A DNA stretch of 64,000 nucleotides from Mustelus asterias (GCF_964213995.1 NW_027590119.1:186001-250000); one strand, 5' to 3'; shown: positions 6,735 through 63,611, counted from the stretch's first letter. Translations and numbers: made by a program. Notes: generated by a model from the letters alone, not told the origin.

Positions 6735-7480
6735 AGAGAGAGAAACCTGGGCCAACCTTTCCAGAGTCTGCAGCCTCCCTGGATTCACTTCCTTTGCCTT
6801 CAGTTGCTGCAAGTCCCCAATTTCCCCCAGAATGAGAAAAGAAATGGAAAGGGGGAGAAAAGAAAGTGTTTTACTCACAGATGTTGGAGAGGGGAGGAAG
6901 TTTGAGTCTGTCTGAAAATCAATCATCATTCACACAAAGCCCGCGCTCTGATTGGCTGGAAGACCAGAGTCCTCCCAGTCCTTCAACTCTTCCCATTGGT
7001 CAACACCTCAGCATGAAGATCAGAGGGTGGGTTCTCCCCCGCACATGTGCAGCTTCCCCTCTCCCCCGCACATTTGCAGTCCCAGGCCGGAGGCGATGGG
7101 GGGGGGGGGGGGCGGGGTGCGATCACCGAGCGGCTTCTCGCTCTGGCCGGAGCCGGCAGCCAGTTGTCTGGAAACCGTGGCTGGAAGAGGTGTAGGGGGA
7201 GGGGAACAATGGGTGGGGGGCGGGGCTCCTGGGTCCGCGCGCCGGGCCTGCGCAATGGAACCCGGAGACGTCACCCGGAGCAGAGAGATTTCTATTGGCT
7301 GATTCAGGCAGGGCTCTATCGTGACGTCACAATGCAGAAGTTGTCCAATGAGCTTCAGAGTGAAACTTCCTCCTCTGGGCAACATCTGGGGGGAAATCAA
7401 TGTTTCCCCCTTTCCATTTCTTTCCTCATTCTGGGGGAAATTGGGGACTTGCAGCAACTGAAGGGAATGAAGTGAATTCG
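6735..7480. promoter_or_regulatory. Bidirectional CpG promoter and first-exon modules of pair A/B
   Basis: CpG-rich; CCAAT boxes (~6950, ~6995, ~7295), CRE gtgacgtcac 7321-7330, GC box; inverted ccaacatct|gtgagt modules on both sides (plus-side donor mutated). Confidence 0.65.
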
Positions 7481-22559: not shown

Positions 22560-23700
22560 TTTAAGACGGAGAGAGACCTGGGCCAACCTTTCCAGAGTCT
22601 GCAGCCTCCCTGGATTCACTTCCTTTCCCTTCAGTTGCTGCAAGTCCCCAATTTCCCCCAGAATGAGAAAAGAAATGGAAAGTGTTTTACTCACAGATGT
22701 TGGCCAGGGGAGAAATTTGTAATGTGTGAAGCTCAATCTTCAGAAAGAGGGAAGCAGCCGCTTGACCAGCTCCACGTTCAGACAATCAGGATGACCCGCG
22801 CAGCCATTGGCACAAAACCCGCCACTGATTGGCTGGATGATCAGATTTCTTCCGGTCCTCCAGCTCTTCCCATTGGTCAATGAAGACAATAGGCAGCGAA
22901 ACCCGAGCCCACGTGGGGCCGGAGACACTTTGACCTCCGAACGCGTGGAGCTGTTGTCCAATCCGCAATGTTGTCTTTTTCCTCCAATGGGAGACTGAGC
23001 GTTGGGAAAGTCTACGCTAGAATCAGCCAATAGGAATCAGTCTGCTCTGCCATGACGTCGTGGGGTTCCAGTGCGCAGGCCCAGGCGCGCGGACACGCCC
23101 CCTCCCATTGTTCCACCTCCCATTGTTTCCCCTCCCCCTGTGCCTCCTCGAGCCAAGGTTTCCAGGCAACCGGCTCCGGCCAGAGGGAGAAGCCGCTCGG
23201 TGATCTCCCCCTCCCCCCTCTCTCTCTCCGGCGGCTGCTGCTTCAAAAAGAGATCGAGAGCGACCGCTGGCGGCAGCCGCACTGCGCCTGCTCCGGACAG
23301 CTCGGCTCAGCAGCGCTCTCTGCGCCTGCTCCGGACAGCTCGGCTCAGCAGCGCTCTCTGCGCCTGCGCGCTGGGCTGCCAGCTGAGGGAGTGGGGGAGG
23401 GGACTTTGCAAAATCTCTTCCCATCATTTTCTTCCAAGTCCCGCAGTTTGATTTGAAACAGAACAGCTTCTGTTTGTAGCTTCACCACAGACTCAAACTT
23501 CACACACAGACTCAAACTTCACCACAGACTCAAACTTCACCACAGACTCCAACTTCACCACAGACTCAAACTTCACACACAGACTCAAACTTCACACACA
23601 GACTCAAACTTCACCACAGACTCCAACTTCACCACAGACTCAAACTTCATCCTCTGGACAACATCTGTGAGGAAAACACTTTCTTTCCCCCCCTGGGAAA
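22560..23700. promoter_or_regulatory. Bidirectional CpG promoter and first exons of pair E/F
   Basis: Donor modules at ~22690 (minus) and ~23667 (plus); CCAAT pair 22825-22880; 23030-23210 homologous to 45590-45780. Confidence 0.65.
23483..23650. repeat. 19-20-bp tandem repeat, ~9 copies
   Basis: cacagactcaaacttcac units. Confidence 0.9.
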
Positions 23701-33509: not shown

Positions 33510-33910
33510 AGAGAGAGACCTGGGCCAACCTTCCCAGAGTCTGCACCTTCCCTGGATTCACTTCCTTTCCCTTCAGTTGCTGCAAGTCCCCAATTTCCCC
33601 CAGAATGAGAAAAGAAATGGAAAGGGGGAGAAAAGAAAGTGTTTTACTCACAGATGTTGGCCTCTTTGGAGGAAGTTTGAGTCCGTCTGAAGCTCAACCT
33701 GCATTGTCACAAAGACCGCGCTCTGATTGGCTGGAGGACCAGAGTCCTTCCGGTCTTCCAAGAATTTCCATTGGTCAACACCTCAGCAGGGTTCAGAAAC
33801 ATTTCCGCACATGCGCAGATTCCCCTTTCCCTTGGACATGCGCAGATTCGAGCCCGGACTATTGAGCGATTTCTCCAACGCGAGGCATTGTGGGGGATGC
33901 GGCCGCCATT
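33510..33910 (-). promoter_or_regulatory. First-exon module and half-promoter of ZNF G
   Basis: Donor module ~33645, CCAAT pair 33720-33780, two catgcgca motifs. Confidence 0.6.
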
Positions 33911-58620: not shown

Positions 58621-59295
58621 TCACTTGTGAACTTGCTGGTGTGCCCGCAGGCTGGATGACTGAGTGAATCCCTTCCCACACACACAGCAAGTGAATGGTC
58701 TCTCCCCGGTGTGAACTCGCTGGTGTATCCGCAGGTGGGATGATGTTCTAAATCTCTTTGAGCAGTGAGAGCAGCTGAACGGTCTCTCCCCAGTGTGAGT
58801 GCGCTGGTGAATCATCAGTTCCCGAGAGCTTTTGAAATCACGCCCACAGTCAGAGCATTTAAACGGTCTCTCATTGGTGTGAGTGAGATTGTGGTTCTGC
58901 AGGCTGGATGACTGAGTGAATCCCTTCCCACACACAGAGCAGGTGAACGGTCTCTCCCCAGTGTGAACTCGCTGGTGTATCCGCAGGTGGGATGATGCTC
59001 TAAATTTCTTTGCGCAGTGAGAGCAGCTGAACGGTCTCTCCCCAGTGTGAATGCGCTGGTGGATAATCAGTTCCCGAGAGCTTTTGAAACCACTCCCACA
59101 GTCAGAGCATTTAAAGGGTCTCTCCTGGCTGTGAGTGACTTTGTGTTTTGACAGGTTAGATAACTGCGTAAATCCTTTCCCACACACAGAGCAGATGAAT
59201 GGCCTCTCCCCGGTGTGACTGCGTCGATGAATTTCCAGTTTACAGGGGGCTCTGTATCTCTTCCCACAGTCCCCACATTTCCACGGTTTCTCCAT
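58621..59295 (-). CDS. C2H2 zinc-finger protein J, 8 fingers
   Basis: Intact MEKPWKC...HQQVHK*, with full family 3'UTR (58375-58620). Confidence 0.9.
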
Positions 59296-60098
59296 GGTGC
59301 GGGTGTCCTTGTGACTCTCCAGGTTAAACAATCAGTTAAATCTCACACAGAACACGGGTACAGTCTCTCCCCGCTGTGAATGCTGCGATGTACTTTCAGG
59401 CTGTGTAACTGGTTAAAGCTCTTTCCACACTCAGTGCAGTGGAACACTCTCACTCGGGTGTATCTGTGCCTTGGTGCTTTTCCAGTCACATTGATATTAA
59501 AGGCCTGTTGACGCAGACAGAACAGGGAAACATTTCTCCTTCCAGATTCAAAGGCCGATAATATTCAGGTCCGATGAATTGAGTGAGGGTGTCAGATGCT
59601 GATGTGACGTTTGTTTCAATCCTCTGTCTGTCAATCCTCACCTTCTCATATCCTGTAAACGAGTTTGGAAAATTCATCAATGTCAGCACAGGATAGAAAT
59701 TCAGAACAGACTATTCTAGTTTCTATGGAACATTCTTTCCTCTCTCATTCCCGAAAAGCTGTAAATCTCCATTCCACACACTCTCCCTCCATTCTCACTC
59801 TGCTGTATCTAATATTCACCCTCCCAATTCTCCTGAAGGTGCTGATTGAGGCTGATTGACAGATCCATGCTCACTGCTTCCTCTCCTGGACACAGGGAGC
59901 TGAAAATCTCCCTGCAGGCTGCCAGACAGATATTTGTCTAAATTACTGGGCTAACAATGTGTGGAACATACCGACTGGATTCACTTCCTTTCCCTTCAGT
60001 TGCTGCAAGTTCCCAATTTCCCCCAGAATGAGAAAAGAAATGGAAAGGGGAGGAAAAGAAAGTGTTTCACTCACAGATGTTGGCCTCTTTTAAGGCTT

Positions 60099-60170
60099 TG
60101 CATTGGCCAGGAATACGAACCCAGGCCTCCCGCGGGGCAGGTGAGAATTCTACCACTGAACCACCAATAC
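60099..60170 (-). pseudogene. tRNA-Gly(GCC) pseudogene
   Basis: GTATTGGTGGTTCAGTGGTAGAATTCTCACCTGCCCCGCGGGAGGCCTGGGTTCGTATTCCTGGCCAATGCA; matches vertebrate tRNA-Gly-GCC, with an anticodon-stem mismatch, A37>C and a T-loop insertion. Confidence 0.85.
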
Positions 60171-60458
60171 TCAAGGGAGAGAAAACTGCTCAGTTCTTTC
60201 AACCAGTGCTTTCACATGCAAAGAAATGTTGATGATTTGCAGCAGCAAATTCAGTGCTGCTACACACACACAACACTGTTGGAGACAGGAGGAAGATTGA
60301 ATCTGCCCACTCCCCCATGCCCCGGGGCTGCGCATGTCCAAGGGAGAGAGGAAGCTGCGCATGTGCGGTGGAGTGCCCACCCCTGAGATGTTGACCAATG
60401 GGAACTCTGGAGGACCGGAAGGACTCTGGTCCTCCAGCCAATCAGAGCTCCCCCGTAT

Positions 60459-60800
60459 GGGCGGCACGGTAGCACAGTGGTTAGCACTGCTGCTTCACAG
60501 CTCCAGGGTCCTGGGTTCGATTCCCGGCTCGGGTCACTGTCTGTGTGGAGTTTGCACATTCTCCTTGTGTCTGCGTGGGTTTCCTCCGGGTGCTCCGGTT
60601 TCCTCCCACAGTCCAAAGATGTGCGGGTTAGGTTGATTGGCCAGGTTAAAAATTGCCCCATAGAGTCCTGAGATGTGTAGGTTAGAGGGATTAGTGGGTA
60701 AAATGTGTGGGGGTAGGGCCTGGGTGGGATTGTGGTCGGTGCAGACTCGATGGGCCAAATGGCCTCCTTCTGCACTGTCGGGATTCTATGATTCTATGAT
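60459..60800 (+). mobile_element. Full-length HE1-like SINE inserted in the J/K promoter
   Basis: gggcggcacggtagcacagtggttagc...attctatgattctatg. Confidence 0.9.
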
Positions 60801-60946
60801 TGTCTGAATGCGGAAGTGGACAATGAGCTTGTTCAGCTGCCCATTCCTGCCCAGCAAAGCTGCTGCTGCTTCTCTCTCTCTGAATGAAGATTGAGCTTCA
60901 GACACAGACTCAACCTTCCTCCTGTCTCTAATATCTGTGAGAGTGT

Positions 60947-61019
60947 GGGTCAGTGGCGCAATGGATAACGCGTCTGACTACGGATCAGAAGATTCCAGGT
61001 TCAACTCCTGGCTGGCTCG
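60947..61019 (+). tRNA. tRNA-Arg-ACG: tRNA-Arg(ACG)
   Basis: 73 nt GGGTCAGTGGCGCAATGGATAACGCGTCTGACTACGGATCAGAAGATTCCAGGTTCAACTCCTGGCTGGCTCG; two tolerated changes from the vertebrate sequence as I recall it; TTTT at 61051-61054. Confidence 0.93.
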
Positions 61020-62084
61020 ATGTCAATTTGAAAAATAGTTTGTGAGCTCCTTTTGACCTAAAAGAGGCCAACATCTGTGAGTAAAACACTTTCTTTGCTC
61101 CGCTTTTGCGTTTCTTTTGCATTCTGGGGGAAATTGGGGACTTGTTGAATTTTTAACTTCCAGGTCACCACTCGCTGCCTAAATAAAAATCCTCCTCACA
61201 TTCTTCATGTATCTGTAACCAGGTAACACAGTGCATTACACACATCATCAGTCCGCTCATTGATGTCCAAATGTAACACTTTAACGTGGCTGTCAGCTTG
61301 AAGATTAATCATGGATCATTTGCACTTCCACAACCCTCTGAGGCAGCGGGTTCCAGGTAATGACCTTTCTGCACCAAAATAAAATTCTTCCCCACATCCT
61401 TCCCTTTCTCCCAATCCAGTTATCCGGTCCCGCATATGGCACAGATTTTAATTTCTAGCGTGTAGGCCGGTCGTTACACGTAGATTTTCAGATCTCTGTG
61501 TCCAATATAGAAAGTGGTCAGCATGGATCCGTTAATCAGCCTGAATCAGCACCTTCAATAGACTTGGGAGGTTGTATGCTCAGGAGAGCACAGTGAGAAT
61601 TGAGGGAGAGTGTGTGGGATGGAGATTGACAGATTTTGGAGAATGAGAGAGGAAAGAATGTTCCATAGAAACTAGAATTGTCTGTTCTGAATTTCTATCC
61701 TGTACTGACAATGATGTCTGTTGTAAATTCCTTTCATAGATATCAGGAGGTGAGGATTTACAGACAGAAATTTCAAACTAAACATCACATCAAGATTTGA
61801 CAGAGCCATTCGATTTATTGGGACCTGAATATCATCGACCTTTGAATCTAGAAAAGCAATGTTTGTCTGATCTGTTTGCTTAAGGAGATTTTAAACATCA
61901 GTGTGACTGGAACACACCCGAGTGAGAGTGTTCCAGTCCACTGATAGTGGAAAGAGCTTTAACCAGTTACACAGGCTGAAACAACATTGCACCGTTTACA
62001 GTGAAGAGAGACCGTACACGTGTTCTGTGTGGACAAGGATTCAACTGATCATCAAACCTGGAGAGCCACAAGGACACCCGCATC

Positions 62085-63611
62085 ATGGAGAAACTGTGGA
62101 AATGTGACAATTGTGGACAAGGATTCATGTTGCCCTGTGATTTGGAAATTCATCAACGCAGTCACACTCGGGAGAGACCCTTCACTTGCTCAGTGTGTGG
62201 GAAGGGATACATTAAGTTCTCCCACCTGCTGAGTCACAATCTCACTCACACCAATGAGAGACCCTTTAAATGCTCTGACTGTGGGAGCGGATTCAAAAGC
62301 TCTGGAGAACTGGTGTCCCACCAGCGCATTCACAGTGAGGAGAGACTGTTCAGCTGCTCTCACTGCACAATGAAATTTAAATGGTCATCCACACTGCGGA
62401 GACATCAGCGAGTTCACACCGGGGAGAGACCGTTCAGCTGCTCCATGTGTGGGAAGGGATTCTCTCGGTCCTCCGAACTGCGGGCACACCAACGAATTCA
62501 CACTGGGGAGAGACCATTCACCTGCAATGTGTGTGGGAAGGGATTCTTTCGGTCATCCGCCCTGCTGACGCACAAAGTCACTCACACCAATGAGAGACCC
62601 TTTAAATGCTCTGACTGTGAGAGTTGCTTCAAAAGTTCTCGGGATCTGATGTCCCACCAGCGCATTCACACTGAGGACAGACCGTTCAGCTGCTCTCACT
62701 GCACAAAGAGATTTAGATCATCATCAAACCTGCGGAACCACCAGCGAGTTCACTCCGGGGAGAGACCATTCACTTGCTCTGACTGTGGGAAGGGATTCAC
62801 GCAGTTATCCGCCCTGCTGACACACCAGCGAGTTCACACCGGAGAGAGGCCATTCACCTGCTCTGTGTGTGGGAAGGGATTCACTAATTTACCCAACCTG
62901 CTGAGTCACAAAGTCACTCACACCAGTGAGAGGCCCTTTAAATGCTCGGACTGTGGGAGTGAATTCAAAATTTCTGGGGAACTGGTGTCCCACCAGCGCA
63001 TTCACACTGAGGACAGACCGTTCAGCTGCTCTCTCTGCACAAAGAGGTTTAAGAGGTCATCCACACTGCAGAGACACCAGCGAGTTCACACCAGGGAGAG
63101 ACCGTTCATCTGCTCTGTGTGTGGGAAGGGATTCAGTCAGTCATTCACCCTGCTGACACACCAGCGTCTTCACACCGAGGAGAGACCATTTACCTGCACC
63201 GAGTGTGGGAAGGGATTCACTCAGTCATCCACCCTGCTGACTCACCAGCAAGTTCACAGCGGGGAGAGACCATTCACCTGCACCGAGTGTGGGGACAGAT
63301 TCACTCGGTTATCCACCCTGCAGAGACACAAAGTCACTCACTCCCAGGAAAGACCCTTTAAATGCTCTGACTGTGGGAGTGGCTTCAAAATTGCTCAGCA
63401 TCTGATGGACCACCAGCGCATTCACACTGGGGAGAGACCGTTCAGCTGCTCTCACTGCACAAAGAGGTTTGGAAGGGCATGCACACTGAGGAGACACCAG
63501 CGGGTTCACACTGGGAGAGACCATTCACCTGCTCTGTGTGTGCGGAAGGATTCACTCGATACCCCAGCTGCTGATGCACAATGTCCCTCACACCCAGGAG
63601 AGACCCTTTAA
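62085..63611 (+). CDS. C2H2 zinc-finger protein K, 17 fingers then a frameshift; decayed fingers to ~63745
   Basis: 508-aa ORF starting MEKLWKC; 1-nt loss in the linker near 63513; family 3'UTR from 63745. Confidence 0.88.
   Translation: MEKLWKCDNCGQGFMLPCDLEIHQRSHTRERPFTCSVCGKGYIKFSHLLSHNLTHTNERPFKCSDCGSGFKSSGELVSHQRIHSEERLFSCSHCTMKFKWSSTLRRHQRVHTGERPFSCSMCGKGFSRSSELRAHQRIHTGERPFTCNVCGKGFFRSSALLTHKVTHTNERPFKCSDCESCFKSSRDLMSHQRIHTEDRPFSCSHCTKRFRSSSNLRNHQRVHSGERPFTCSDCGKGFTQLSALLTHQRVHTGERPFTCSVCGKGFTNLPNLLSHKVTHTSERPFKCSDCGSEFKISGELVSHQRIHTEDRPFSCSLCTKRFKRSSTLQRHQRVHTRERPFICSVCGKGFSQSFTLLTHQRLHTEERPFTCTECGKGFTQSSTLLTHQQVHSGERPFTCTECGDRFTRLSTLQRHKVTHSQERPFKCSDCGSGFKIAQHLMDHQRIHTGERPFSCSHCTKRFGRACTLRRHQRVHTGRDHSPALCVRKDSLDTPAADAQCPSHPGETL

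Follow-up and report, generated by a model that had tools for sequence, protein, structure and literature searches.

Two tRNA copies at a zinc-finger gene pair of Mustelus asterias are likely precursor-tRNA inserts pasted by a Tx1-clade LINE

Results

Anatomy of the two tRNA inserts

The window analyzed here is a 64,000-nucleotide stretch of Mustelus asterias DNA (GCF_964213995.1 NW_027590119.1:186001-250000), which contains a pair of genes with C2H2 zinc-finger (ZNF) frames, J (58621..59331, minus strand) and K (62049..63611, plus strand), the latter reaching its highest identities, 56-59%, with shark proteins. Between J and K lies a shared promoter-like stretch (60329..60442) with two TGCGCATG, two CCAAT and one CCGGAAG motifs, which we take to be NRF1, NF-Y and ETS sites. 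A SINE copy (60459..60793, plus strand), presumably of the HE1 family, is located between these motifs and K exon 1. Both ARAGORN and Rfam called a tRNA-Gly at 60099-60170 (minus strand, 35 bits) and a tRNA-Arg at 60947-61019 (plus strand, 58.1 bits), in agreement with a previous sequence-only reading of the window in which two tRNAs point outwards. The distance to the predicted donor GT, which had been estimated at ~25 and ~57 nt, was measured as 24 nt from tRNA-Gly and 57 nt from tRNA-Arg. A TTTT before the donor in Arg and not in Gly had also been reported; it was found at 61051-61054, and T4 is absent before the GT on the Gly side.

As had been noticed, the Arg copy stands between two versions of the exon-end motif, CTAATATCTGTGAG (60928-60941) and CCAACATCTGTGAG (61068-61081). 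The first is the upstream copy of a 14-bp target duplication on the plus strand, with 2 mismatches and a donor-like CT/GTGAGA; most paralogues, unlike the window copy, have the perfect 14-mer at this position. It is followed by a 5-nt leader (60942..60946), likely a precursor leader, whose junction is shared by nearly all of 47 Arg copies. In a dispersed copy devoid of the Tx1 tail (L061), the last four letters of the 5' flank are those of this leader. The tRNA-Arg(ACG) copy itself still has A and B boxes matching what we take to be the consensus, and it is followed by a 35-nt precursor-type trailer ending in TTTT (61020..61054), which is also found on dispersed copies outside ZNF genes (L061, L062, L063). 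A 13-nt LINE 3' terminus (61055..61067), identical to the end of long Tx1 copies and joined to the trailer through a 3-nt T microhomology, then leads to the downstream target copy (61068..61081), with the predicted exon-1 donor GT at 61077.

The Gly insert, read on the minus strand, starts with an upstream target copy truncated to 6 nt (60277..60282), the upstream donor being lost, and continues with about 105 nt of spacer from a true tRNA-Gly array unit (60171..60276; 88-94% identity to L186, L181-L183 and L191). The tRNA-Gly(GCC) copy (60099..60170) is decayed, a 1-nt T-loop insertion breaking the spacing of its B box. Comparison with paralogues indicates that a 12-nt deletion left only a remnant of the trailer (60095..60098) and took the T-run that paralogues keep. 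An 11-nt Tx1 3' terminus (60084..60094) and the downstream target copy (60070..60083; predicted donor GT at 60074-60073) complete the insert. In both inserts, the small RNA is in sense and located 5' of the truncated LINE end.

A shared motif made of a LINE end and a host target

The window contains three exact copies of the 21-mer AAAGAGGCCAACATCTGTGAG, at 33647-33667 (minus), 60070-60090 (minus) and 61061-61081 (plus), against a chance mean of 0.01, and the last two of them follow the tRNAs. There are 333 exact copies in the genome and none of a reversed control. This motif is composed of two parts, AAAGAGG, which corresponds to the last seven bases of a Tx1 LINE, and the 14-bp CCAACATCTGTGAG, a stretch of host DNA found in duplicate on either side of several inserts including Arg. 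The third window copy belongs to gene G (33647..33667, minus strand), where a 7-nt Tx1 stub adjoins the target and a few exon bases are lost. G had been regarded as an empty or deleted version of the slot. This does not hold, since G keeps the Tx1 tail whereas truly empty sites, such as window 6874-6887, 22690-22703 and 23658-23671, are devoid of AAAGAGG. A short tandem expansion of an exon-1 word was seen at 23450-23660 (plus), upstream of an empty site, and a ZNF subfamily at 7380-7480 (plus; also L307) has an exon-end site without GT.

Upstream of the motif lies mostly one long repeat, about 90% alike and with varied 5' cut points (30 copies listed), and longer flanks revealed an element of roughly 6.5-7 kb ending in the motif. 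Among the 100 of 333 sites listed, the 29 copies of 24-999 nt show 18 different lengths of 5' truncation. ORF2 of the element encodes an APE endonuclease (PF03372) and a reverse transcriptase (PF00078), both above cut-off; a 745-aa frame is 53% identical to Xenopus Tx1 ORF2 over 99%, most fish matches being at 35-40%, and the C-terminus of the element protein gave 38% identity over 396 aa. The donor of the tail is assigned to the Tx1 clade on this protein identity. The search for CCHC knuckles of an ORF1 gave one PF00098 match, in a broken copy and at 20.0 bits, below the cut-off of 20.8.

The element is also dispersed, with 888 exact 26-nt 3' ends in the genome, stubs shorter than 26 nt falling outside this count. 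Only [C/G]CA[A] is common after the end of the 30 dispersed copies listed; one of them has ZNF sequence and only 8 have clear duplications of 11-14 bp, which are also seen at ZNF sites. In contrast to ~0.3 expected from the 4-base preference in these 30 copies, 71 of the 888 ends (8%) abut CCAACATCT, a number inflated by duplicates. The ZNF site is a strong hotspot for Tx1, not its only target; at 8%, the preference is strong and strict specificity, set by Kojima at more than 20% of flanks at one target, is absent.

Two other observations concern this site. The Tx1 end at L226 (C1) continues into the ZNF target and intron sequence in a region lacking any ZNF exon, and may represent a 3' transduction. 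The same 14-bp site is also used, at L004, L012, L121, L192, L266, L274 and L068, by another element, which seems to be non-coding, has an A-rich end and shows tandem stacking about 1.9 kb apart.

Occupancy of the site across the genome

Among the 100 tail-bearing sites listed out of 333, 74 contained Tx1 alone (20 of at least 1 kb, 29 of 24-999 nt and 25 stubs), 23 a tRNA followed by the tail and 3 unassigned fillers. The tRNAs were 14 Arg, 6 Gly and, under names that we assign provisionally, 2 Phe-like and 1 Thr-like; in Rfam the Thr-like copy scored 33.3 bits and the truncated Phe-like copies were not called. Motif classes were used for these counts because ARAGORN with default settings missed the partial Gly copy in L008 (0/30). 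The proposal that different tRNAs of varied isotypes occupy one equivalent slot in the same orientation is thus upheld by these 23 sites. No tRNA was found within 350 nt of the 30 exact sites listed out of 626 (17 empty, 11 Tx1-tailed and 2 with a second element), chosen without selection for the tail, or in the slot of 25 anchor hits from three further stretches of the cluster totalling 600 kb.

Of 21 matches to a T-loop-plus-tail pattern, 15 are of the Gly family. Two Val copies and one Pro-like copy lie outside the cluster, each within a duplication of its own; two more are the Gly copies L008 and L084, and the last, L086, was rejected as not being a tRNA. Off-cluster chimeras of tRNA and tail with their own duplications comprise L082 and L085 (Val), L083, and L063, which on another chromosome holds the 3' half of the same Arg precursor. 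Capture of tRNAs therefore tracks the LINE, not the gene. A single duplication surrounds the whole chimera in the Arg insert (14 bp), L082, L085, L063 and L124, the Gly insert having only 6 nt upstream.

Other small fillers were noticed. L233 (C1) has a small-RNA-like 5' piece, which we take to be U2 snRNA-like, fused to a 402-nt Tx1 3' end. Tx1-tailed fillers of ~100 nt (L120, L135, L058, L060) and ~130 nt (L029, L030, L105, L155) also occur, with no Rfam match in L120/L135 or L029/L155. A 5S rRNA copy (63-71 bits), followed by a SINE, is found in exon 1 of the divergent partner gene at L116:2111-2219 and L158:2121-2229.

Source of the captured tRNAs

A search with the trailer led to the true tRNA-Gly array, with 35 units 1.8 kb apart on C2058 and more on C1. 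Each unit consists of two tRNA genes separated by a 143-nt spacer without T4, followed by T5. The J insert corresponds to 105 nt of this spacer plus the second tRNA of the unit, and 13 of 28 Gly paralogues keep the trailer up to the source T-run (TTTT); the J copy itself has lost 12 nt including the T-run and gained one base in the T loop. Because the match covers the array spacer and extends in paralogues through the trailer as far as the T-run, the template of the Gly insert was likely a read-through precursor tRNA. The source gene of Arg was not found by pattern and DNA searches of the genome, which returned only slot copies and four dispersed ones; its leader and trailer appear precursor-like. 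The RNA part stops at a natural end, the source T-run, in Gly paralogues, and at TTTT, a probable natural end, in Arg. Dispersed tRNA-Gly copies with a precursor trailer (L174-L185) were also seen, about half of them joined directly to the 5' end of a SINE, so that precursor capture extends beyond Tx1.

Copy history and conservation

The best 30 Arg matches have K-type flanks 95-100% identical to the window, and most of those inspected among the 58 genome matches to the Arg trailer sit in ZNF slots. A site tree was built from the 75 of 135 sites that share a common block, the 60 omitted sites including a second Arg lineage. In this tree, whose bootstrap was not fully settled, the 32 Arg rows group in a single clade (support 100/100), whose sister is empty, and the 21 Gly rows group in another, together with 4 differently filled rows (100/100). 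Among these 75 of 135 sites, Arg and Gly genes are each one young clade. Empty K-type alleles are 93-97% identical to Arg-bearing ones. At four loci (L103, L110, L137, L156) the K-type gene is empty and the Arg insert sits in the J position, in an unrelated ZNF that forms the divergent partner. Since the insert is present in two ZNF lineages and its flanks are more variable than its trailer and tail, duplication alone is insufficient and conversion or a second RNA hop is needed. Rather than many independent insertions from a master copy, as in a SINE family, we found single clades for Arg and Gly, and beyond them at most one second Arg lineage and two second-generation Gly copies.

Diversity values were uncorrected for shared ancestry. 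In 47 Arg copies, non-CpG diversity was 0.040 for the tRNA body versus 0.003 for the trailer; that of the Arg flanks, some of them misaligned, was 0.06-0.13, above trailer and tail (0.003-0.005). CpG-type sites were variable at 13 of 16, the anticodon was changed in 8/47 copies (ACG being kept in 39/47), and the B box fits the consensus in 46/47. In 28 Gly copies, diversity was 0.069 for the body versus 0.031 for the spacer, with a changed anticodon in 10/28 and the T-loop insertion in 14/28. The tRNA bodies thus appear no better conserved than the flanks inserted with them, a pattern that does not suggest purifying selection. The tRNA structure is intact in the Arg copy (58.1 bits, T4) and not in the Gly copy (35 bits, T-loop insertion, T4 absent). 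With a near-intact K copy and ACG kept in 39/47, some Arg copies could be working genes.

The predicted splice donor

The use of CT/GTGAGT as a donor is predicted from sequence. Of 31 anchor hits, 25 retain GTGAG, as do most of the rows anchored on exon 1, and no spliced junction was seen at this donor. Contigs from four runs of related organisms, presumed to derive from RNA, were compared with gene G: the predicted donor was not among the 15 joints listed (369 more), and one contig crosses gene G unspliced (33552-33788). Among the matches listed, there was no RNA dataset with the K intron or exon, and the exon-1 peptide was not seen at the N-termini of six shark and ray zinc-finger proteins. 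Paralogues do not conserve the AG and GT of a candidate micro-exon lying about 70 nt downstream of the intron start, which was therefore rejected.

Because the duplicated 14-mer includes the GT, two donor-like sites are present in K, whose tRNA may be intronic or exonic, whereas the J insert, whose upstream donor is lost, would fall in exon 1. The idea that the tRNA is spliced in or out by donor choice fits the two donor-like motifs around Arg, which would allow either outcome, with donor use remaining a sequence-level prediction. Promoter-type motifs are also present upstream of empty paralogues. As the J/K pair has its own Pol II-type promoter motifs, a tRNA promoter is not needed.

Probable second-generation copies and Val-headed LINE copies

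Two dispersed copies, L008 (C13) and L084 (C22), extend from the tRNA-Gly 5' end through the tail, the target with its donor and the start of the intron to the first T-run. In both cases a full SINE is joined to this unit, the surroundings contain no ZNF sequence and no flanking duplication was detected; L084 has derived bases in common with a subgroup of Gly cassettes. These two copies are likely re-copied Pol III read-through transcripts of slot copies devoid of a terminator, a reading that would give some meaning to the missing TTTT of Gly.

Nine LINE-type copies in ZNF sites (L064, L197, L340, L341, L343-L347), located on C12, C23 and C75, open with a tRNA-Val and a 3-nt leader. The anticodon is GAC in 8/9, and a T-to-C change in the T loop, absent from true Val genes, is found in 7/9. 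The six hosts compared are separate genes, which indicates that the head, with its shared derived changes, was inherited with the element. Runs of T5-6 are present within 45 nt behind the head in 8/9 and the B box is altered, so that the head is unlikely to be a Pol III promoter. Our best guess is that it rides as a passenger within a leader transcribed from the ZNF promoter. Five of these copies have a second donor-like site just behind the head. True-looking tRNA-Val genes (AAC, CAC) with their own conserved flanks (L348-L369, L302) are interspersed in the ZNF-cluster contigs, and one may speculate that their nearness to ZNF sites favours capture. No tRNA-Val-headed LINE was found in the open full-text literature, which excludes Repbase and most subscription papers; a functional head would represent an unusual LINE architecture.

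Discussion

Taken together, these data make it highly probable that both tRNAs are precursor-tRNA copies pasted by a Tx1 LINE at its favoured 14-bp site and amplified as the genes duplicated, their sequences showing no sign that they were selected as tRNAs. The 6.5-7 kb element ends in the shared motif, duplicates an 11-14 bp target and is over-represented at this site. Its reverse transcriptase would start on its own RNA at the nick, copy a dozen bases and switch to an oligo-U-ended nuclear pre-tRNA; alternatively, the two RNAs would be ligated beforehand. For Gly, the insert matches the spacer, second tRNA and trailer of a two-gene unit, and a read-through precursor would have been the template. 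The genes were then duplicated, the Arg and Gly genes forming one young clade each, whose sisters are empty or differently filled. Since the GT is inside the duplicated 14-mer, a donor would survive downstream and often upstream too, making the site tolerant. Terminator-less Gly inserts would at times be transcribed by Pol III across the donor, as suggested by two dispersed copies. Several points weigh against this explanation: the Arg source was not found, the upstream Gly duplication is only 6 nt, the K Arg copy is near-intact, the Arg flanks are more variable than trailer and tail, the Arg insert is present in a second ZNF lineage, clear duplications mark only 8 of the 30 dispersed Tx1 ends listed, and shared ancestry is not factored out of the diversity values.

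The tRNA-ZNF cassette proposed by the sequence-only reading is not supported as a functional unit, the slot being a Tx1 insertion site, mostly empty or LINE-filled. It is also very improbable that the tRNAs were later co-opted, with TFIIIC/Pol III insulating, boosting or dampening the ZNF promoter, or donor choice switching the leader, and so drove the J/K expansion. The K copy does retain its boxes and T4 between two donor-like motifs, most inspected matches among the 58 for the Arg trailer are in ZNF slots, and Pol III appears, judging from L008 and L084, to have been active at some of the slot copies. However, near-identical K-type genes are empty and the filler is replaced within one clade, anticodons, CpG sites and tRNA bodies decay, the pair has its own Pol II-type promoter motifs, and in the J copy the B box is broken and the upstream donor lost. 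This decay argues only weakly against an insulator role, for which the B box kept in 46/47 Arg copies would be enough.

That the Arg insert is a nascent SINE, with a tRNA head and a Tx1 tail, homing by itself into many zinc-finger genes seems to us very improbable, despite its SINE-like anatomy, its identical 5' junction, the very low diversity of trailer and tail, its presence in two unrelated ZNF lineages, upstream site variants that differ from the downstream copy, and the existence of second-generation Gly copies. All 32 Arg rows of the tree are in one gene clade (the second lineage, lacking the block, is outside the tree), and the T4 precedes the tail, so that a normal Pol III transcript would lack it. 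Furthermore, the derived upstream variant is common to both lineages, which fits one insertion plus conversion equally well. Finally, although true tRNA-Val genes with their own flanks are on the same contigs (22 of 30 listed; 59 matches) and the Gly insert brings 105 nt of upstream DNA, it is scarcely credible that the tRNAs simply belong to an interspersed tRNA/zinc-finger cluster, having moved as DNA and come to lie close to donors through chance or recombination, a reading already contradicted by the junctions: the inserts end at a Pol III T-run, join a LINE end and sit at the LINE target, and the extra 105 nt lie inside the terminator-free spacer between two tRNA genes.

Retrotransposition by Tx1, our preferred explanation, has known counterparts. 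In the excerpted text of Doucet et al. 2015 (PMC4476161) and Moldovan et al. 2019 (PMC6789731), U6 snRNA/LINE chimeras combine a full-length Pol III RNA that stops at a T-run, in sense orientation, with a 5'-truncated LINE, the whole lying between target duplications; they are seen with L1, L2 and RTE and made by template switching or RtcB ligation, the two routes known for such chimeras (see also PMC11838501). The J/K inserts, judged against these excerpts, work alike and belong to that kind. The sequences at J/K are compatible with both routes, and the short T microhomology fits either, although oligo-U 3'-OH ends would favour switching (PMC6789731, from the same excerpts). In contrast to the U6 chimeras as presented there, the partner is Tx1, the cargo is a pre-tRNA with leader, trailer and even a two-gene spacer, the LINE contributes no more than 11-13 nt, and insertions accumulate at a single site of a protein-coding family. 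Relative to those accounts, the Tx1 partner, the precursor-tRNA cargo and the hotspot in a protein-coding family are the new features; none was found in the open full-text literature, and supplementary target tables may list a ZNF-targeting Tx1.

Human tRNA/L1 chimeras are, in the part of PMC11838501 that describes them, few (21 loci), mostly half-length and antisense, and pre-tRNA retropseudogenes were reported by Schmitz 2004, as cited in PMC4476161 and PMC4494074. The inserts share with both, as described there, tRNA-derived sequence, probable insertion by LINE machinery and, clearly for Arg, duplications; unlike those human chimeras, the tRNAs here are whole, sense and apparently unprocessed. 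Target-preferring LINEs of the Tx1 clade covered by the excerpts of Kojima 2015 (PMC4494074) include Xenopus Tx1, Keno, Kibi, Koshi and Tx1-Mar with SINEU, the targets listed being transposons, microsatellites, satellites, snRNA and 5S genes. The shark element resembles these listed LINEs in its Tx1-type ORF2, its multicopy target and its recurrent small-RNA heads, and differs from them in that the target is the exon end of protein-coding genes and that 71/888 ends are under the 20% bar (PMC4494074).

A bolder picture, possible and yet more likely wrong than right, would make the exon-1 site a retroelement nursery, in which Tx1 keeps pasting pre-tRNAs, some of them are transcribed by Pol III through the donor and re-copied elsewhere (L008, L084), the captured Val head is an inherited, working 5' module of an autonomous LINE lineage and TFIIIC on the amplified Arg copies tunes ZNF expression.

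The present analysis removes a false lead, the tRNA-zinc-finger regulatory cassette. It also carries a warning, since tRNA calls in these clusters, even high-scoring ones, include dozens of duplicated retrocopies. For the biology of retroelements, a single definable site appears to have captured again and again the first step of SINE birth, a tRNA head on a LINE tail, and the same genome contains the source gene, the empty alleles and the second-generation copies.
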